DNA of 28,054 nt from assembly GCA_003228415.1 (NCBI GenBank), contig QIDL01000190.1:1-28054 (forward strand), given 5' to 3'. The notes beneath the pieces are model-generated. The model saw only the letters and a list, made by a program, of their open reading frames with translations, was not told the origin of the DNA and made no database searches. Shown here piece by piece: positions 839 to 22,268 of this stretch (the first letter of the stretch is position 1; the number at the start of each line of letters is the position of its first letter). A program made the position numbers and the translations under genes. The DNA comes from Gammaproteobacteria bacterium. Its GTDB lineage: Bacteria; Pseudomonadota; Gammaproteobacteria; Pseudomonadales; Azotimanducaceae.

Positions 839-1999
839 CTATTCCCGCGACAGCGCAACAGCGGTGGCTTCGCCTCCTCCGATACAGAGAGCGGCGATGC
901 CACGTTTCTTATCGAGTCGTTGCATCGCATGGGCCAGGGTCACGATGAGTCGGCTGCCGGTGGATCCGATCGGGTGACCCTGGGCGCAGGCACCTCCGTA
1001 GATGTTGACACGCACCGGATCCAGATTCAGATCGTTGATCGCGATCATGGTCACCATGGCAAACGCTTCGTTGATCTCGAACAGGTCCACATCGTCTGTT
1101 GTCCAGCCGAGCCTGTCGAGCAGCTTGGCGATCGCTCCGACGGGGGCGATGGTGAATTCCGATGGGTGTCTCGAGTGGGTCGAATGGCCCGCAATTCTCG
1201 CCAGTGGTTCGGAGTCATCGAGGGCGCCTTCAGCGCCGAGAACGAGCGCAGAAGCACCATCCGATATGGAGCTGGCATTGGCGGCCGTGATGGTACCAGC
1301 CGCTTTGAAGGCCGGCCTCAAGGTAGGTATCTTTTCAATTTTTGCGCGTCCGGGCTGCTCGTCATCGCCGATTAGAGCTTCGCCCACCGTCAGTGGAGCA
1401 ACTTCCTGGCGCAGTTGGCCTTCTTTCATGGCCCTGCGAGCACGCTCCAGCGAGGTAATGGCGAAGCCATCCATTGCCTCGCGGGTGAGCTGGTAGTCGT
1501 CGGCAGTATCCTGCGCAAAGCTACCCATGGATTCGCCGGTTTCGGCATCTTCCAATCCGTCGGTAAACATGGCATCAAGGATCTGACCGTGCCCCATGCG
1601 CTGCCCGCTGCGAGCCTTGCTGAGCAGATAGGGAGCATTGGTCATGCTTTCCATCCCGCCGCAGACGATGCAGTTCGCGCTGCCGGCGCGAATGAGATCG
1701 TGGCCGAGCATGGTGGCTTTCATGCCGGAGCCGCAGACCTTGTTGACCGTCAGCGCCCCACAGGAATCCGGCAGACCGGCTAAACGCATCGCCTGCCGTG
1801 CTGGTGCCTGCTTGAGTCCGGCACTGATGACGTTGCCGATGATCACTTCGTCGATCTGGTCGATGGTGGTCCCTGCCGCGGAGAGCGCAGCTCGAATGGC
1901 GTGGGCACCGAGCTCGGGCGCGCTAAGGGAAGCCAGCACCCCCTGGAACGAGCCGATGGGGGTTCTGGAGGCACCGAGGATGTATACGTTGTCAGTCAA
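839..1999 (-). CDS. Acetyl-CoA C-acyltransferase (classical thiolase, AtoB/PhaA-like)
   Basis: All four canonical motifs are present: NKVCGSG (nucleophile Cys), NEAF, GHPIG and CIGGG. TTG start with a perfect AGGAGG 5 nt upstream. Confidence 0.95.
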   Translation of the reverse strand: MTDNVYILGASRTPIGSFQGVLASLSAPELGAHAIRAALSAAGTTIDQIDEVIIGNVISAGLKQAPARQAMRLAGLPDSCGALTVNKVCGSGMKATMLGHDLIRAGSANCIVCGGMESMTNAPYLLSKARSGQRMGHGQILDAMFTDGLEDAETGESMGSFAQDTADDYQLTREAMDGFAITSLERARRAMKEGQLRQEVAPLTVGEALIGDDEQPGRAKIEKIPTLRPAFKAAGTITAANASSISDGASALVLGAEGALDDSEPLARIAGHSTHSRHPSEFTIAPVGAIAKLLDRLGWTTDDVDLFEINEAFAMVTMIAINDLNLDPVRVNIYGGACAQGHPIGSTGSRLIVTLAHAMQRLDKKRGIAALCIGGGEATAVALSRE

Positions 2000-2059: not shown

Positions 2060-2089
2060 ATTCTACCCGGCGGACAATCGTATCGGCTA
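2060..2089 (-). promoter_or_regulatory. Possible sigma70 promoter for the thiolase-fabY unit
   Basis: Minus-strand TAGAAT at 2065-2060 followed by a GC-rich discriminator-like GCCGCG. The -35 candidate TAGCCG (2089-2084, 18-nt spacer) is weak. Confidence 0.35.
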
Positions 2090-2590
2090 GCTCTCGCGGA
2101 ATCTGGGTAACAGTTCTACGAAGTTACACGGTCCCGTTGCGCTGTTGAGTTGGGGACTCAATATTCTCTCCCACGCGGTTCTGACCGCGTTGCTCGATCC
2201 AGGGAGCACGAAGATCAGGGTCCCATTGGCGAGACCACCCAGAGACCGGGACTGGATGGTCGATGCGCCGATCTCTTCGAAGGAGACCTGGCGGAACAGT
2301 TCGCCGAAGCCATCGATGGTCTTGTCGAAAAGCGGCAACAGTGCTTCCGGAGTGCTGTCACGGCCAGTGAATCCCGTCCCTCCGGTGGAGAGAATGACCT
2401 GTACCGCTTCGTCCGCAATCCACGCCGATACAACGGAGCGTATCTGATAGACGTCGTCCCGGACCAGGCTGCGGTCCACCACCTGGTGTCCATCGGTGGT
2501 GATGAGTTCCTGGAGTAGTGCCCCTGAGGTATCCTCTTCGATGGATCGGCTGTCGGAGACTGTGAGAACGCTGCAATTCAAGGCGGTCAT
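2087..2590 (-). CDS. moaB: Molybdenum cofactor biosynthesis protein B (MoaB/MogA family)
   Basis: VLTVSDSR...[40 protein letters not shown] and LPGS motifs; 167 aa. Confidence 0.93.
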
Positions 2591-2711: not shown

Positions 2712-5700
2712 GTGGATAAGCATCTACAAGAAGGCGACAGACTTTACCTGATTGCAGAGAGTCTGGCGCAGGATTTCTCCTTGTTTCCGAGCACGGAAAG
2801 CGATGAGTTGTTGCCGGGCTGTCTCGGCAAGCGGGAAATCTTTCGGCGACAACAACATCTGAGCCGATTGGACGTGGATTCCTATATCGAGGCGGTGATC
2901 ACGCCTGCGGAAGATCCCGGTCGGATTTCGGCCCCGGTCATCATCCGTCAACTCGGCCGGGTGCTCGAGGAAGCATCCGAGGGATCCTTCTACTCCGCAA
3001 TTATAGAGATGGATTTCGACGGGGATACCCGCGCGGTAGGTTTCATCGCTCAGGACCGATCCTATCGCAATGGTGAATGGGGTCCGTCTCATCATCTGCA
3101 GGCGGCCGATCGATTGCAGGCTTTCTCGCGACGTGCCATTCCCATCGTGACGCTGATGGATACGCCGGGTGCGGATGCCAAGGATGAAGCCAACCGTCAC
3201 AACCAGGCTCATAGCATTTCCCGGCTGATTGCAGAGGCGAGCAACGTCGACGTGCCCAGTGTCGGGATCGTCTATGGGCTTGGCTATTCTGGCGGCGCGA
3301 TACCGCTGGCGGCCAGCAATATGATTCTGGCGCTCAAGGATGCCGTGTTCAGCACCATTCAACCTAAATCGCTGGCAAGCATTGCCCGGCGCCTGAACCT
3401 GTCGTGGCAGGAATGCGCCAAATACGTGGGCCTGTCTGCCTACGAGCTGTGCGAGCAGGGCAACATAGACGGCGTGGTGGATTTCTCGCCGGCCGACCCC
3501 AGCGTGGAAAACCTGCGCGCAGCAATTGTGGCGGGCATAAAGCGTGTGGAAGATTCGTGCCTCGAGTTCGTCGCAGAAAACCCGTATATCCTCGATCACT
3601 ACCGACAGAGCCTGCGGCGATTCCTCAACCCCTCTGAACATCTCAAGCGCATGCAGGCCGGGGCCGCACTGAAGCGTTCTCGAAATCCCACCGAATATCT
3701 GAATGTTTTCGGTGTGGCTTTCAGATACCTGAGATATCTGAAGGTGAGACAGCGCATCAAGGCCACCACCACCTCTCAGTATGGCCGACTGTCCAATCAG
3801 GAACTCCCCAAAGGCGAACTCGATAAGCGTGCCGAACTGGAACGGCGCCTGACCTTTCTGAAGTGGTTGCAGGATCCCGATCGGGTGGTTTACGACGAAG
3901 CCCTGTCCAGATCCTGGAAAAACTACAACGAGAAAAAGCAGGCGGTTCACGATGAACGAGGCCGCATTGCCCAGTTGCTGTTCGGCGAACCCAAGAAGAA
4001 CTACGAAGAAGCCCGGTCGGGCATACTTTCATCGGTCGGCGTGTTCCTTTACAACCGCTGGAAGGCGGAAGCCGTGGGGAACTTACGGGCGCTGAAGGAA
4101 TTTCTTGCCCAGCCCGATGACATCCGGCAGATCCTGAGAGTCTCGGACATCAGTGATGCGCGTGCGTTGATCGAAGCGCTTGGCGAAGATTCCGAACTGC
4201 TGGCCACTCTCAGGAAGAGCTTCTCCCACGAAGGTAAGAAATTGCTGGCAGGGACGAGAGATCTGGATGAGAAGTCAGATCAGTATCTCAGCACGCAACT
4301 TGCAGTCGAACTCAATCTGGCCATCACCGGTGGGTCCCTCACCGGCGATGAAACTGCCAGTCTGGCAACGAATCGGCGCGTGTTGGGCGAGCGTTTCAGC
4401 GGTCTGATCAAGCCGGTCGACGAAGTGCGATCGCCGGTCGCGTTCAGCGACCTGACCGTGCTGGATGTGCTGGTGGAAGATGATCTGCGCCCAGATTTCA
4501 TCAAAGAATGCGAGAACCTGCTGCTGTTCGATTCTGTTTACGATCAGATCATCGCCAACCTGGATCGTATCGCTGAAGAAGCTCAGGCCGGACAGTCCTT
4601 ATCGAAGGACTCTCTGGCCGAACTCATTGAAGCGACGCTCAGCCTTGCGGCTCAGGGCATCACTCTGGGCGGCGAAGAATCGGCTGGTGAAAGCGCGGCT
4701 GTTCGTCAGGCAGTGCTGGCCGAACAGATGACCGACTGGTATCTCAGAATTCAGGGCATGCCGAAGAATACCGAGTTTTTCCGTTTCGTCGAGGAGTGGA
4801 AAAAGGTCGTGTTTCCGCACTTATCGGATGCGCTCTTTGTCGTGGTCACACATTTGTTCGAAAACCTGCTGCTTTCCTACATCCAGTCGGAGCGAGAAGG
4901 TAAGAATTATCAGGGTCGTATCGCGCCGAAGAACATAGGGCGCCGCAAGGACTTCTGGAACAATCTGAACATGGCCTACCGCGACCTCCGTATCCAGAAT
5001 GTGTTACGTGATGTAAAGAATCAGAAGCAGACTGGTTATCAGAAGTTCATCGATCGGTTCTTCACGGACTTCGAAGAGCGGTACGCGGATCTCCTGAGTT
5101 CCGATCCGCGCAGTTTCCCCGGTTTTCGCATCGCCATCGAACAGGCGCTGGATCACAACTTGCCACCGTGCGGCGTGGTTGTGGGTCTTGGTAACTTCGT
5201 CGGTGGCGATGCCCCGATTCGGGTCGGTACGCTGATCTCCAACTTTGGTTTTCAAGCCGGATCGTTTGATATGGCGAGTGCCGAGAAATTCTGCAAGCTG
5301 CTGGTGGATTGTGCCGAACAACATCTGCCGGTCATCTGCTTCATCTCATCCGGCGGCATGCAGACCAAGGAAGGCGCGGGTGCGCTGTTTTCCATGGCTG
5401 CGGTCAACGATCGGCTGACCCGCTTTGTGCGGGATCACGATCTACCGATCATAATTTTTGGTTTCGGCGATTGCACCGGGGGGGCTCAAGCCAGCTTCGT
5501 GACCCATCCACTGGTGCAGACCTACTACTTCAGCGGCACCACCATGCCGTTTGCGGGCCAGATCGTGGTGCAATCGAACCTGCCTCTGAACTCAACACTG
5601 TCCAACTACCTGTCTCAGGTGGATGGAGCGATGCAGGGTCTCGTGCAACACCCGTTTCATCCCGAGCTCGATGAGGCGCTGAGAATGATCGACCCCGACA

Positions 5701-7559
5701 TTCCGCTGCCTCATGAATCGGTGGGCGAAGTCGTTTCCCGGGTTTTATCCGGCGTTCTCAGTCAGAAGCGTCCTGTTGTGGTTGCCCATCGCCAGCGTTA
5801 CACAGACCAGGAACTGATCAGACCGGTGCGGAGGGTTTTGATTCATGCCAGGGGCTGCACGGCGGCAAAGCTGATACGAATCGCGCAGAAGAACGACATC
5901 GAGGTGGTCCTGGTGCAGTCCGATCCGGATATGGAGTCGGCTGCCGTCGATCAGTTGCTGCCGCGTGATCATCTGGTGTGTATCGGTGGCAACACGCCGG
6001 ACGAGAGCTATCTCAACGCCATGAGCGTTTTGCGGGTGGCCGAGCTCGAACGGGTCGATGCTCTGCATCCGGGGATCGGTTTCCTGTCTGAGAATTCCGG
6101 TTTCGCGGAACTCTGTCGCAGCCATGGCATCAACTTCATCGGCCCGCCCGTTGCCAGCATGGAGACCATGGGTAACAAGTCCAATGCAATCAGCACCGCT
6201 CTCGAGCTCGAGGTACCTGTCGTTCCCGGTAGCCACGGAATTCTCACCGATGTGGAAAGTGCCTCGCGGGTTGCCGGGTCACTGGGCTATCCGGTACTGA
6301 TCAAGGCCGTGCATGGGGGCGGTGGCAAGGGCATCCAGATCGTCGAGCACCCGGACGAATTTCATGAGTTGTTCCAGCGCGTTACCGTTGAAGCCCGGGC
6401 GGCGTTTGGGAACGGCGATGTCTATCTGGAAAAGTACGTCACCTCACTACGCCATATCGAGGTCCAGTTGCTGAGAGACACCTATGGCAATACCAAGGTG
6501 CTGGGTCTCAGAGATTGCAGCATCCAGCGCGACAAGCAGAAGGTGTTCGAGGAATCGGATGCCACGATGTTGCCGGCGGATCTCAGAGCAGCGGTACTCA
6601 AGCACACATCAGATATCGCGGACGAAGTAGGCTATGTCGGTGCCGGAACGGTGGAATTCATCCACGACCTCGAGAGCGAGGCCATTTACTTCATGGAGAT
6701 GAATACCCGCTTGCAGGTGGAGCACCCGGTGACAGAGTGGGTCTCCGGGATCGATATCGTCTCCGAGCAGTTTCGGATAGCTTCCGGGGAATCCATTGCC
6801 GATCTGGAACCCGCGAACGATGGCTACGCCATCGAGGCTCGGATCAACGCTGAGCGGATCGAGGTTGGAGCAGATGGTGAGCTGGCATTCCGGCCGCACC
6901 CGGGGCAGATCACTGTTTTTGAGCTTCCACAAGAAGATGGAGTTGAGATCATTTCGGCCGTATCCGAGGGTAAATTCGTCTCACCCTTTTACGACAGCAT
7001 GATTGCCCAGGTCATCGTTCACGCCTCGGATCGGAACGCGGCCGTTACCAAATTGCTCGGCTATCTCGACACTGTGTCGATTCAGGGCATCAGTACCAAT
7101 GTGCCGCTGCTGAAGCGGGTTCTGCAGGATTCGGTGTTTCTGGACGGCATATACGATACCGGCTATCTGCGTGAATTCCTGACGCGTATCGACGTGGAGA
7201 AGCTCAGCGAAGAGATTGACGCGTCGGCTGGGGAGATCGGTGGTGGCATTGACAGGGAAGCCATCCGGATCGAAGACAGCGCGGAATTGAAGGTGCTGTC
7301 TCCCGCCACTGCCATTTTCTACACGACCCCCACTCCGACCGAGCCGGAGTTTGTGACCGTCGGTGACAAGATCAGGATTTCGGATACCATCGGGCAACTC
7401 GAGGCGATGAAGATCTTCACCCCGCTCAAACTCGCCGACTTCAATGGTGATGTGGAGCTTTACGACCCGGCACAGGAGTTCGAGGTCACCAGGATCAATA
7501 TGGCAACAGGTCAACAGGTCAACGTCGGTGATCTGCTGTTCGTGGTGAAGGCGCTTTGA
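2712..7559 (+). CDS. Single-chain multidomain biotin-dependent acyl-CoA carboxylase: CT-alpha (AccA-like), unknown helical region, CT-beta (AccD-like), biotin carboxylase (AccC-like), BCCP (AccB-like)
   Basis: AccA-like IVTLMDTPGA and GLGYSGGAIPLA (about aa 150-200). AccD-like FQAGSFD, LPVICFISSGGM, CTGGAQASF and PFAGQIVV (about aa 775-960). BC motifs HPGIGFLSEN, IKAVHGGGGKG, RHIEVQ, RDCSIQR, EMNTRLQVEHPVTE and YDSMIAQ (about aa 1037-1490). Biotinyl motif EAMK (Lys1567). The start is uncertain: GTG2712 has no SD, and TTG2781 has AGGA 7 nt upstream. Confidence 0.93.
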   Translation: MDKHLQEGDRLYLIAESLAQDFSLFPSTESDELLPGCLGKREIFRRQQHLSRLDVDSYIEAVITPAEDPGRISAPVIIRQLGRVLEEASEGSFYSAIIEMDFDGDTRAVGFIAQDRSYRNGEWGPSHHLQAADRLQAFSRRAIPIVTLMDTPGADAKDEANRHNQAHSISRLIAEASNVDVPSVGIVYGLGYSGGAIPLAASNMILALKDAVFSTIQPKSLASIARRLNLSWQECAKYVGLSAYELCEQGNIDGVVDFSPADPSVENLRAAIVAGIKRVEDSCLEFVAENPYILDHYRQSLRRFLNPSEHLKRMQAGAALKRSRNPTEYLNVFGVAFRYLRYLKVRQRIKATTTSQYGRLSNQELPKGELDKRAELERRLTFLKWLQDPDRVVYDEALSRSWKNYNEKKQAVHDERGRIAQLLFGEPKKNYEEARSGILSSVGVFLYNRWKAEAVGNLRALKEFLAQPDDIRQILRVSDISDARALIEALGEDSELLATLRKSFSHEGKKLLAGTRDLDEKSDQYLSTQLAVELNLAITGGSLTGDETASLATNRRVLGERFSGLIKPVDEVRSPVAFSDLTVLDVLVEDDLRPDFIKECENLLLFDSVYDQIIANLDRIAEEAQAGQSLSKDSLAELIEATLSLAAQGITLGGEESAGESAAVRQAVLAEQMTDWYLRIQGMPKNTEFFRFVEEWKKVVFPHLSDALFVVVTHLFENLLLSYIQSEREGKNYQGRIAPKNIGRRKDFWNNLNMAYRDLRIQNVLRDVKNQKQTGYQKFIDRFFTDFEERYADLLSSDPRSFPGFRIAIEQALDHNLPPCGVVVGLGNFVGGDAPIRVGTLISNFGFQAGSFDMASAEKFCKLLVDCAEQHLPVICFISSGGMQTKEGAGALFSMAAVNDRLTRFVRDHDLPIIIFGFGDCTGGAQASFVTHPLVQTYYFSGTTMPFAGQIVVQSNLPLNSTLSNYLSQVDGAMQGLVQHPFHPELDEALRMIDPDIPLPHESVGEVVSRVLSGVLSQKRPVVVAHRQRYTDQELIRPVRRVLIHARGCTAAKLIRIAQKNDIEVVLVQSDPDMESAAVDQLLPRDHLVCIGGNTPDESYLNAMSVLRVAELERVDALHPGIGFLSENSGFAELCRSHGINFIGPPVASMETMGNKSNAISTALELEVPVVPGSHGILTDVESASRVAGSLGYPVLIKAVHGGGGKGIQIVEHPDEFHELFQRVTVEARAAFGNGDVYLEKYVTSLRHIEVQLLRDTYGNTKVLGLRDCSIQRDKQKVFEESDATMLPADLRAAVLKHTSDIADEVGYVGAGTVEFIHDLESEAIYFMEMNTRLQVEHPVTEWVSGIDIVSEQFRIASGESIADLEPANDGYAIEARINAERIEVGADGELAFRPHPGQITVFELPQEDGVEIISAVSEGKFVSPFYDSMIAQVIVHASDRNAAVTKLLGYLDTVSIQGISTNVPLLKRVLQDSVFLDGIYDTGYLREFLTRIDVEKLSEEIDASAGEIGGGIDREAIRIEDSAELKVLSPATAIFYTTPTPTEPEFVTVGDKIRISDTIGQLEAMKIFTPLKLADFNGDVELYDPAQEFEVTRINMATGQQVNVGDLLFVVKAL

Positions 7560-7609: not shown

Positions 7610-8344
7610 CTAGTTGAAACCGAGTAATCCGGTGGCTCCCCTGGCGAACAGGAGGGTGGCGATGGCGAGGATCACCCAGCTGCTCGCTGTCCGGAACCGT
7701 TTATCTGTCAGCCGTACCAGCATGCGAGTCCCGATTCGGGTCCCGATCACAGCGGTCACAATCGCCAGAGCGTAGACCCAGTCTGGCATCGCGTCGCTGA
7801 CCCCGATGATCAGGCCGTAATAAAAAAGTTTCAGCAGATGTCCGAGCGTCTGGGTGAACGCCTTGCTGGCAATGACCTCGAAGCGATTCAATCGCGTGTT
7901 GAGGTAGAAGACATCGAGCAGAGGGCCGGATGCACCGGCAAAGAGTTGTGCGGCAGTGACCGCGATTCCGCAGGCAAAGGTGGTAGGCGGATGATTGATG
8001 TCCAGACCGTGGAGCCTGGGAGTGAGGCGAGCCAGCCAGGGGAAGATGCCGACAATCATCAGAATCAGATTGGCATCCGGAAGCACTGCCAGAACGCTGA
8101 AGGCGGCGACGGTGATGGCAGCACCGAGGGCGTATGGCGGCAGGATGTGCCATTGTATGTGAGCCCTTAGAAACCAGGCGCGCGACCCGTTCGCGGTGGC
8201 CTGTACGGCTCCGTGGAGCATCATGGCCGCTCCCACCGAAAGCACAGAGACCAGAATTGCCATCAGAATCATGCCGCCCGCCATTCCGATAAATCCGGAT
8301 AACGCGCTGGTAGCCAGCACGGCGGTGAGGATCAGTGGGATCAT
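7610..8344 (-). CDS. Sulfite exporter TauE/SafE (TSUP) family membrane transporter
   Basis: Multiple hydrophobic segments, with the N-terminal SGFIGMAGGMIL and second-half AGASGPLL glycine motifs typical of TSUP. I moved the start from 8497 (which overlaps the LysR gene) to ATG8344 (MIPLILT); ATG8374 is an alternative. Confidence 0.8.
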   Translation of the reverse strand: MIPLILTAVLATSALSGFIGMAGGMILMAILVSVLSVGAAMMLHGAVQATANGSRAWFLRAHIQWHILPPYALGAAITVAAFSVLAVLPDANLILMIVGIFPWLARLTPRLHGLDINHPPTTFACGIAVTAAQLFAGASGPLLDVFYLNTRLNRFEVIASKAFTQTLGHLLKLFYYGLIIGVSDAMPDWVYALAIVTAVIGTRIGTRMLVRLTDKRFRTASSWVILAIATLLFARGATGLLGFN

Positions 8345-8423
8345 GGCGGGGCAGGATGCCGACGCTCCGATCATGAAAAAAGCGAATAGTTGGAATATGA
8401 TCTGGTCGGAATAGGAAACTATT

Positions 8424-9278
8424 GTGCTGGAAAATCTGGAAACGCTTGTGACCCTGTCGAGAACGGGGACCATGATGGAGACGGCCACGGTGCTCAAGGT
8501 CTCTCAATCTGCCGTGAGTAAACGCATCGCAGCGCTGGAGCGCTACTACGATCGAGCCCTCATCGAACGCCATGGCCGGCGGGTAGTGCTCACCCACCAC
8601 GGCACCAAGCTGGTGGAGAAGGTGACCCCACTCATTTCGGAACTGCGTGGGGTATTTCTCACCGATAACGCGCTGCGGAAGGGCAAAATCATCCTCGGAG
8701 TTTCGGAAGCGATACTGTGCAGCTGGGGCCCGAAGCTGTTCGCCGATGTGCAGGAGCTCATGCCGGAGGTGGAGTTCACCTTTCATGCTCAGCGATCGCC
8801 GGTGGTTCTCGACCGGCTCCGCTCGGGGGAGTACATGGTCGGTATCTGCACCGGCACGTCGGATGCGGATACCGATCTGCAGAGTGAGGTGATCCGCCGT
8901 GAGCCGATGGTGATACTGCCTGCCGGGCTCAGAACGTTGGACTACGAAATTGGAGATCGGCTCGACGTCATCACCATTGAGTCCAGATCGGGTGCCTGGC
9001 GATCCATCGAAGACGACATGGGTCGCTTGAACCTGGTTCGTCGAGAATCCCTGGAGTCGTTTTTTGCGGTCGCGCAGATGGCGATGGCGGGTTTCGGCAA
9101 CGGCCTGGTTCCTGCAGGTGTCGCCAGAACTCTGGGTGTTCGGGAATCCGACTGGATTGACCTTACGGTGGCCGGTCTCAACCGACCGGTGCGCTTTGTA
9201 GCCCGTAAATCGATGTTTGCCCAACCTCTGGTGCAGAACTTTTATCAGGCGGTGTCGGAACGGGTCCAATTCGTCTAA
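8424..9278 (+). CDS. LysR-family transcriptional regulator, divergent from the TSUP gene
   Basis: N-terminal HTH LETLVTLSRTGTMMETATVLKVSQSAVSKRIAALE, then LIERHGRRVVLTHHG and a GKIILGVS effector-domain start. GTG start preceded by AGGA; 284 aa. Confidence 0.93.
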   Translation: MLENLETLVTLSRTGTMMETATVLKVSQSAVSKRIAALERYYDRALIERHGRRVVLTHHGTKLVEKVTPLISELRGVFLTDNALRKGKIILGVSEAILCSWGPKLFADVQELMPEVEFTFHAQRSPVVLDRLRSGEYMVGICTGTSDADTDLQSEVIRREPMVILPAGLRTLDYEIGDRLDVITIESRSGAWRSIEDDMGRLNLVRRESLESFFAVAQMAMAGFGNGLVPAGVARTLGVRESDWIDLTVAGLNRPVRFVARKSMFAQPLVQNFYQAVSERVQFV

Positions 9279-20792: not shown

Positions 20793-22268
20793 CTAAAAAT
20801 GGGCGATGTTGTTGGCCAGCGAAACCGCTCTGCCGCAGAATTCTTCGCAAGCCATGGCGTCCAGCACCTCCCGGTCTTCCAGACTTGCCCAGACACGGCA
20901 ACCGTTGTCGGTCAGTGCGCTCAAATATGCTGTTTTCGGCTCTTCGGTCGAGGCGCCGTACATCACGGTGTAGCTCTCGACCCGGGCTACTCCCTGGTAG
21001 CCGTCCATGACCTCGCGGGTCGCGAACCGGTCGACCTCAGATTGCAGGTCCACGTGCTTAAAGGGTCTCCCTGGCGCCTCGGCCGCATAGACACCGAACG
21101 CGTGCTTCGCCAGATAACCGCCGTTGGCCGTGATCAGCCCTTTGCTGTCGGGTGCTTTCCGGAGTAATTCGACCATCCTGGCGATGGAGTGCATGACGTA
21201 GTTGTTCAACGGACCACCGGCAAAGGTCAAACCGCCGGTGATGGTCAGTGGCCGGGACAGATCCAGGCCGATCTCCCGCGCGCCCACCTGCACGGCCACG
21301 GGAAAGCAGCTGTAGACGTCTACATAGTCGAGTGTTTCGGGGGTCAGGTCTGCGAGTTCGAGTGCGCGCCGACCGGCCAGGCGGATGGCGGGTGACTCGT
21401 AAAAATTGTCTCTGTGGGACGCCAGATAGGCATCGTGAGCATCCGTCCCGGTCCAGGGGTAGACCCATCTGCTTTGATCGATACCGAGCGCGCGGGCCCT
21501 GGTCGTCGAGCACAGGATCAGAGCGGCTGCCTGATCCACATTGCTGTTTGAATTCATGAATTTTGGATAGGGGAAGGAAACGGGCCGATTCACCGCGGAA
21601 ACCGAACGAATCTCCTTCGCAGATTTGGCTTCGCGAATCCAGGCATGTGGATTTTCAGCCGCCACGGCGGAAAAACCCGCCCAGAGTTCGGAGATTCGCT
21701 TGACGTGCTCATCGATCGATTCGCCAAGGTGATGACGCAGTGCGTTCTCGAACATCGGGTAGACCTGAATCGGCTGGCTGATTCCGAGCTCCATCTCAAT
21801 CCGGTGGGCCATGGGAACATCCTCGCCGATCAGCAGATCCGGAGTTCCGGGTGCGCTCTGCCAGTCCAGATCGGTGCGCAGATTCAAACCTGCCTTGAGC
21901 GCCTTCGCCTGGGTATTGCCGCACTCTGCACCGGTAATCAGAATGATGTCGTGCCGGCCTGCTTGAATATCCAGCGCACTCTGGTTGACCGTGGATTGAA
22001 CGAAGTTGCCGCCGTAGGGCGTGATACAGGTCTGGGCACCCGGCACACCCAGTCTCTCACCGATGACTTTGGCGGGATTTTTGTATGGCCAGCGGCCGCG
22101 AACCACTCGGATGCTGCTTGCAGTGCTGAGCAGCCTGGCCGAGCCTGCGTCGGCGCCTGCCAGTTCCAGCGCCTCCAGCATCAGCGCAAGAGGTTCTTTG
22201 CTCTCTCTGGGATCGGAGGATCGTTGCTCCAACTGGGCGATTCCGACCAGTACCGGGGTTTGCATCAT
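20793..22268 (-). CDS. Thiolase-like protein (atypical acetyl-CoA acetyltransferase family, PRK08257/TLP1-like) with a C-terminal extra domain
   Basis: TPVLVGIAQ, GGN, YPMFENALR, YPKFMNSN-x2-VDQAAALILCS, DVYSCFP, LTITGGLTFAGGPLNNY and ANGGYLAKH. 491 aa, about 100 aa longer than a classical thiolase. Confidence 0.85.
   Translation of the reverse strand: MMQTPVLVGIAQLEQRSSDPRESKEPLALMLEALELAGADAGSARLLSTASSIRVVRGRWPYKNPAKVIGERLGVPGAQTCITPYGGNFVQSTVNQSALDIQAGRHDIILITGAECGNTQAKALKAGLNLRTDLDWQSAPGTPDLLIGEDVPMAHRIEMELGISQPIQVYPMFENALRHHLGESIDEHVKRISELWAGFSAVAAENPHAWIREAKSAKEIRSVSAVNRPVSFPYPKFMNSNSNVDQAAALILCSTTRARALGIDQSRWVYPWTGTDAHDAYLASHRDNFYESPAIRLAGRRALELADLTPETLDYVDVYSCFPVAVQVGAREIGLDLSRPLTITGGLTFAGGPLNNYVMHSIARMVELLRKAPDSKGLITANGGYLAKHAFGVYAAEAPGRPFKHVDLQSEVDRFATREVMDGYQGVARVESYTVMYGASTEEPKTAYLSALTDNGCRVWASLEDREVLDAMACEEFCGRAVSLANNIAHF

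Follow-up and report, generated by a model that had tools for sequence, protein, structure and literature searches.

A single-chain acetyl-CoA carboxylase of the AccS type, probably the housekeeping enzyme, in an Azotimanducaceae genome

The window analyzed here is a stretch of 28,054 nucleotides (contig QIDL01000190.1 of assembly GCA_003228415.1) from a metagenome-assembled genome (MAG) of a gammaproteobacterium in the family Azotimanducaceae, order Pseudomonadales. It carries an accS-type gene for a single-chain acetyl-CoA carboxylase (ACC). The open reading frame (ORF), on the plus strand at 2712-7559, begins with a GTG codon, encodes 1615 amino acids and has no internal stops in the ORF list or the translation, and upstream of the GTG the frame stays open for just five more codons. 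Judged by the positions of Pfam and NCBIfam matches, one polypeptide holds an AccA-like carboxyltransferase (CT) alpha domain, a middle region, an AccD-like CT-beta domain, a biotin carboxylase (BC) domain and a biotin carboxyl carrier protein (BCCP) domain, in the order that characterizes the Shewanella protein AccS, also called AccADCB (Table 1). An earlier sequence-only reading of this DNA had described an uninterrupted ORF of this length with all four ACC functions, and the ORF list, Pfam and NCBIfam bear it out. The nucleotide ranges it gave correspond to residues 60-307 (AccA-like), 774-1020 (AccD-like) and 1037-1493 (BC), which agree with the profile matches.

The domain scan with profile hidden Markov models that had been proposed in that reading recovers the expected ACC modules in the order it gave, with the Pfam Biotin_lipoyl match (residues 1528-1610) below its cutoff at 18.6 bits versus 22.1. 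Pfam ACCA matches residues 133-257 with 88 bits, Carboxyl_trans matches in two stretches, and the BC modules are found as Biotin_carb_N (1039-1150), CPSase_L_D2 (1156-1362) and Biotin_carb_C (1375-1487). Among the NCBIfam models, AccA_sub matches at residues 117-270, accD at 788-954 (41.9 bits, cutoff 317), accC at 1040-1489 (457 bits, cutoff 626) and BCCP at 1521-1613 (39.5 bits, cutoff 115), while the accA model gives the protein 68 bits against a cutoff of 319. Because the scores for all of the acc equivalog models are far under their curated cutoffs, the modules can be recognized but have diverged strongly from the classical subunits. An N-terminal Cys4 zinc ribbon is not visible in the CT-beta domain.

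The catalytic and biotinylation motifs are intact. We compared them in an alignment of 14 AccS sequences that are 39-66% identical to the window protein. The CT-alpha Ser-Gly-Gly-Ala at residues 193-196 (nucleotides 3288-3299) is invariant in the 14 sequences, and the CT-beta motifs SGGMQTKEG (880-888) and TGG.QASF (922-929) are near-invariant across the family. In the BC domain we located GNKSNA at 1154, HGGGGKG at 1201, QK at 1276-1277, GAGTVEF at 1310, Glu-Met-Asn-Thr-Arg...Gln-Val-Glu-His at 1329-1338 and RINAE at 1377-1381. Across the alignment these motifs vary little or not at all, in the forms GNK/GDK, a glycine-rich loop, QK, GAGT.EF, Glu-Met-Asn...Gln-Val-Glu-His and R.(N/T/I)AE. The catalytic roles of the BC and CT motifs are presumably those established for the E. 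coli BC and CT. EAMK occupies residues 1564-1567 (nucleotides 7401-7412), which makes K1567 (nucleotides 7410-7412) the predicted biotinyl-lysine, and (E/V)-(A/V)-M-K is kept in 14/14 of the aligned sequences. All of the motifs that had been quoted for this protein earlier (the EMNTRLQVE region, QK, RINAE and EAMK) are present, and the coordinates given in that reading are correct.

Table 1. Positions of the features discussed in the text, numbered from the first nucleotide of the window.
Feature	Position	Strand	Evidence
accS-type gene, single-chain acetyl-CoA carboxylase, 1615 aa	2712..7559	+	ORF translation; full-length PDB 9kkm_A AccADCB match
CT-alpha (AccA-like) domain, residues ~58-352	2883..3767	+	Pfam ACCA, NCBIfam AccA_sub, model superposition on AccA
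Helical middle region between CT halves, residues ~353-780	3768..5051	+	AF2 model; within alignment to 9kkm_A
Long-form-specific insert, residues ~467-562	4110..4397	+	HMMER alignment break, gap of short forms in multiple sequence alignment, separate model
CT-beta (AccD-like) domain, residues ~781-1016	5052..5759	+	NCBIfam accD, conserved motifs, crotonase-like strand/helix pattern in model
Biotin carboxylase (ATP-grasp) domain, residues 1039-1487	5826..7172	+	Pfam BC domains, NCBIfam accC, conserved motifs
BCCP / biotinyl domain, residues ~1528-1613	7293..7550	+	NCBIfam BCCP, weak Pfam Biotin_lipoyl
Classical thiolase, two genes upstream of accS	839-1999	-	
MoCF_biosynth gene, upstream of accS	2087-2590	-	
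TauE/SafE-like membrane protein, immediately downstream of accS	7610-8497	-	
522-aa ORF without Pfam match, overlapping the TauE-like and LysR ORFs in other frames	7701-9269	-	
LysR-type regulator, 284 aa, diverging from the TauE-like gene	8424-9278	+	
Thiolase-like protein, 491 aa, TLP1 additional C-terminal domain (PF18313), between lptG and queA	20793-22268	-	

The best sequence match in the PDB is chain 9kkm_A (also 9w4a), a protein of 1517 amino acids named "Acetyl-CoA carboxylase multifunctional enzyme AccADCB", with 1669 bits in phmmer; after it come isolated biotin carboxylases, which score about 340 bits. The alignment comes in two stretches, query 6-466 with chain 14-480 and query 563-1613 with chain 480-1513. 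We also built an AlphaFold2 (AF2) monomer model of residues 1-1030 from a 30-sequence alignment (mean pLDDT 79.5, pTM 0.71). Foldseek of this model against the PDB puts 9KKM_A first (E 1e-70, TMq 0.75, 44% identity), and VIA-align places 863 residues (48% identity) of model 10-1016 on chain 18-918 with a Z of 45.9, with stand-alone AccA chains as runners-up at Z of about 25. To the extent that a monomer model can tell, the CT-alpha, middle region and CT-beta are arranged as in the solved holoenzyme. The middle region is nearly all helical in the model, with pLDDT mostly 70-90, and in a Pfam scan of residues 290-790 (and of the insert at 450-580) we found no family at E<=10 beyond a sub-threshold Tex_central_region match (E 0.029). 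Since this region lies inside the 863 residues aligned to 9KKM, the roughly 430-residue helical "spacer" belongs to the solved fold and is not an unknown linker.

Much is already known about the Shewanella protein. In S. oneidensis, AccS (SO_0840, 1517 amino acids) is the only AccA/C/D homologue, beside a separate AccB, SO_0511 (Luo et al. 2016, Table 2, PMC4793157). A streptavidin blot shows it, biotinylated, as a band near 170 kDa (Xu et al. 2024, PMC11602165), and in a delta-accR strain lowered AccS leads to a growth defect that is rescued by accS or by E. coli accA+accD+accBC (PMC11602165). The same paper remarks explicitly that the domain order is non-eukaryotic, and it describes a LysR activator, AccR, that is transcribed divergently from accS in Shewanella (PMC11602165). 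A 2025 paper states in passing that single-chain ACCs occur in Shewanella and some other gammaproteobacteria (PMC12362589). PDB entries 9KKM (released 2025-11-19) and 9W4A are cryo-electron microscopy structures of the AccS holoenzyme dimer, and a methods preprint lists EMD-62392 together with 9KKM.

The window protein shares with S. oneidensis AccS the domain order, full-length homology, an identity of about 44-48% in the first 1030 residues, the fold including the middle region, the catalytic and biotinylation motifs, and a host that lacks separate accA, accC and accD genes while keeping an orphan accB (see below). It differs in being 98 amino acids longer, mostly because some 96 residues (467-562) are inserted in the middle region, in having a MoCF_biosynth-domain gene upstream instead of a divergent accR, and in coming from a different gammaproteobacterial order, where it is known here from sequence and model. 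The window gene is an orthologue of S. oneidensis AccS and a new member of a long-form subfamily whose architecture is already published and structurally solved. The sequence-only reading was right that this is a single-chain ACC with an order unlike that of the eukaryotic enzyme and LCC, the long-chain acyl-CoA carboxylase of mycobacteria. Its view that no enzyme with such an order had been characterized does not stand in the face of AccS (PMC4793157, PMC11602165, 9KKM), and it had itself named a structurally characterized architecture as grounds for giving up its claim, which the full-length homologue in 9KKM and 9W4A provides. The "different carrier-swinging geometry" that it proposed is plausible and is addressed by the solved structure rather than by the window.

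The four catalytic modules and the chemistry are those of the classical heteromeric ACC (E. coli AccA/AccD/AccC/AccB; PDB 2F9Y, 8UZ2). The CT-alpha part of the model superimposes on E. coli and S. aureus AccA with a Z of 24-25 and a root-mean-square deviation (rmsd) of 1.9-2.1, over a model range that starts at residue 49 or 58 and ends at 351 or 353, and the BC domain matches E. coli BC with an E of 3e-94. In contrast to the classical enzyme, one chain unites the modules and a middle region of about 430 amino acids, the scores are far under the accA, accD, accC and BCCP equivalog cutoffs, and the AccD zinc-ribbon cysteines are not visible. Eukaryotic ACC and LCC are likewise single-chain, multi-domain, biotin-dependent acyl-CoA carboxylases, but they run BC-BCCP-CT, with the beta-half of the CT before the alpha-half in one PccB-like unit. 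In the window protein, which does not have this order, the CT comes first, alpha precedes beta, and a helical region splits the two. PDB 4RCN fits the 1-1030 model only domain by domain (rmsd 18 over both halves), and the yeast CT also fits one half at a time. The AccS-type and eukaryotic/LCC-type single chains are independent fusions.

We then asked what other ACC genes the host has. The MAG (3.39 Mb, 628 contigs) is 79.5% complete, and within it we found no separate accA, accD or accC over cutoff. The accA model has the window gene itself as its top match (66 bits, cutoff 319), with no other accA; besides it, the accD model finds PccB/MccB-type CTs of 516-540 amino acids; and the closest match to accC, on contig C13 (contigs, loci and genomes carry our own labels), has 624 bits and is 2 bits short of the cutoff. 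Contig C314 carries a dsbD-aroQ-accB-prmA cluster (positions 15-2850 of locus L020, C314:1326-4217) in which 3 nucleotides separate the accB stop codon from the start of prmA. In gammaproteobacteria the cluster is commonly aroQ-accB-accC-prmA, and here accC has been lost from it cleanly. The orphan accB encodes 154 amino acids, scores 140.6 bits with TIGR00531 and has an intact biotinylation motif. It is also present in the same-family genomes G047 and G092, whereas we found no stand-alone accB over cutoff in carriers G025, G084 and G046, so that among the carriers checked only the window's own family keeps accB.

Because the MAG is incomplete, we surveyed 120 genomes of the same order, each at least 90% complete, with an accA match threshold of E<=1e-40; these genomes are mutually related, so the counts are not of independent samples. 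An AccS-like gene is present in 17/120. There is no accA match in 13 of these 17 carriers, while all of the non-carriers (103/103) have one, and every surveyed genome without accA (13/13) carries an AccS-like gene. This reciprocal distribution of AccS and accA is the pattern predicted by replacement of the classical enzyme. In five near-complete carriers, two of them from the same family at 99-100% completeness, we found no accD over cutoff, and the best match to the accD model in each is the AccS gene. Just one accC-like match over cutoff was seen among the checked carriers, located elsewhere in genome G046.

Based on these observations, the window gene is very probably an AccS orthologue whose single-chain, probably homodimeric product is the housekeeping ACC of a marine gammaproteobacterium, where it supplies the malonyl-CoA that type II fatty-acid synthesis needs and is probably the only enzyme of the cell that makes it. 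By analogy with the Shewanella enzyme, we infer biotinylation, acetyl-CoA as the substrate and a dimer for the window protein. The conserved motifs and the homologous structure suggest how it may work. The C-terminal BCCP domain would carry biotin on K1567, the adjoining BC domain would carboxylate this biotin with ATP and bicarbonate, and the carrier would then take carboxybiotin to a CT active site formed jointly by the two N-terminal domains (AccA-like and AccD-like). These two domains would be kept together by the helical middle region. On dimerization, the alpha2-beta2 CT known from the multi-subunit enzyme would re-form, and so would its BC dimer.

Several observations weigh against this role. 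Four of the 17 carriers (G002, G082, G043 and G088) also keep a canonical accA, and therefore the AccS-like gene is not always replacing the classical enzyme. With the completeness and fragmentation of the MAG given above, the absence of accA and accD there is weak evidence by itself. That genome also holds other biotin enzymes, including a BCCP-BC pair on C13. No divergent AccR stands beside accS in the window, where the sole LysR gene is the one downstream. Substrate specificity, for the window protein and for every long-form member, is something that we infer. As for the carriers that keep accA, G043 and G088 have AccS-like copies that diverge more than any others, with about 39% identity to the window protein, and G082 belongs to the same genus as G035, which has accA and no AccS. 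This hints at a recent acquisition or a paralogous role.

The genes on C13 (C13:7690-14843, loci L010/L012) are, in order, a TetR-family regulator, a 530-amino-acid PccB/MmdA-like CT, a major facilitator superfamily transporter, a BCCP-like protein (207 amino acids), a BC (487 amino acids; the accC match of 624 bits) and a pyruvate-carboxylase-B/OadA-like protein. We considered the BCCP and BC pair as an alternative ACC and rejected it, given that the next gene is pyruvate-carboxylase-B/OadA-like and the 530-amino-acid CT is set apart by the transporter gene. The cluster may encode a split carboxylase for 2-oxoacids or pyruvate. We saw nothing corresponding to it in G047 and G092, the relatives from the same family.

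A protein with CT halves this far from canonical (66-88 bits for AccA and 42-45 bits for AccD, well under cutoffs) might instead be a specialized acyl-CoA carboxylase acting on propionyl-CoA or longer acyl-CoAs, or making an extender unit for a secondary metabolite, with malonyl-CoA supplied by an enzyme in the unassembled 20% of the genome. The four carriers that keep accA, the incompleteness of the genome and its wealth of other biotin carboxylases all fit such a role. We nevertheless regard it as quite unlikely. The reciprocity with accA is near-perfect, with AccS in all 13 of the accA-less genomes, each at least 90% complete, and accD over cutoff is found in 0/5 near-complete carriers, including the two from the same family. 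In addition, accC is deleted from the otherwise conserved aroQ-accB-accC-prmA cluster, and in Shewanella E. coli ACC genes complement for the orthologue (PMC11602165). The other CT genes in the MAG are of the PccB/MccB type (516-540 amino acids), and the C13 pair precedes a pyruvate-carboxylase-B/OadA-like gene and not an acyl-CoA CT.

Given that the contig comes from a MAG in 628 pieces, one could also suspect that the long ORF is not real, and that the assembly is chimeric or a sequencing error has fused separate acc genes. We give this almost no credence. Over 100 clusters of proteins, drawn from independent contigs of which some are closed or megabase-scale, are 66-83% identical to the window protein at lengths of 1573-1671 amino acids, and they align over 96-100% of its length, all but two over 100%. 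The full-length architecture is also found in 17 other genomes of the order, the protein matches one that has been purified and solved (9KKM), and the local synteny is repeated in the 99%-complete same-family genome G047. Conservation in so many clusters, the solved homologue and this synteny together effectively refute an artefact.

The probable housekeeping AccS orthologue in the window gives us no new enzyme architecture. What it adds is comparative support for AccS as a housekeeping ACC in several marine gammaproteobacterial families, because of the reciprocal distribution with accA and the clean loss of accC from aroQ-accB-accC-prmA. Genes of this kind come out of annotation pipelines as 'ATP-grasp domain-containing protein' or as 'carbamoyl-phosphate synthase large subunit', and fatty-acid synthesis may be scored as incomplete, which matters for genome annotation. 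The enzyme is also relevant to antibiotic-target and metabolic-engineering work that seeks a one-gene bacterial ACC.

The insert at residues 467-562 divides the family into long and short forms. It is present in all of the sampled long forms (1610-1666 amino acids), from the window's own family and three other sampled families, and missing from the short forms (1517-1567 amino acids), which include Shewanella AccS; in the multiple sequence alignment it is a gap in 8 sampled short-form genomes, whose proteins have about 1525-1565 amino acids. The HMMER alignment to 9kkm splits exactly here, at query 466/563 versus chain 480. Modelled alone, the insert is predicted to form a compact module of six to seven helices (pLDDT 90.1, pTM 0.83). 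Searches with it gave no match among PDB folds (best E 6.2) and no usable match in an ESM Atlas feature search. An exhaustive phmmer search against 1.84 billion representatives gave 18 matches. One of these (P0123) is an AccS N-terminal fragment and another (P0130) is a 1639-amino-acid protein matched at the insert position. SpaA_2, WD40 and DUF4773 proteins were rejected as relatives because they are repetitive and were matched through repeat bias, and among the identifiable phmmer matches there are no sequence relatives of the insert outside AccS, the rest of the 18 being short ORFs. Shape matches in the AlphaFold database (AFDB) and the Atlas have TM of 0.62-0.70 by query over about 100 residues, to unrelated predicted Glyco_hydro_129, ABC-2 transporter-like, DUF5667 and FN3 proteins. 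For a 100-residue helical bundle such matches are weak and may serve only as a lead. One speculative idea, which we consider doubtful, is that the long-form insert (about 100-120 amino acids) is a portable docking or regulatory module that recruits the orphan AccB or another partner or drives higher-order assembly. If true, the long-form subfamily would have a mode of control or a quaternary structure not seen in 9KKM.

The window accS lies among core housekeeping genes (hemH, hisH/F, valS, holC, pepA, lptFG, queA, tgt, yajC and secDF). A scan for promoters and terminators around accS gave nothing beyond shuffled expectation. The LysR protein encoded downstream has no match at E<=1e-5 to the effector-binding domain of AccR (9BCE), and AccR is a feature of the Shewanella regulon, not of the enzyme family. 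A remark in the NAR 2024 paper mentions "another LTTR" (LysR-type transcriptional regulator) often near accS in the same direction. With the window LysR as the query, we found no homologue adjoining accS in four other carriers, and its synteny with accS does not extend beyond the same family (G047, 75% identity). In G047 the order thiolase-MoCF-accS-TauE-LTTR-hemH is repeated as a whole. The 522-amino-acid ORF that overlaps the TauE-like and LysR genes is most likely a spurious long ORF in GC-rich DNA.

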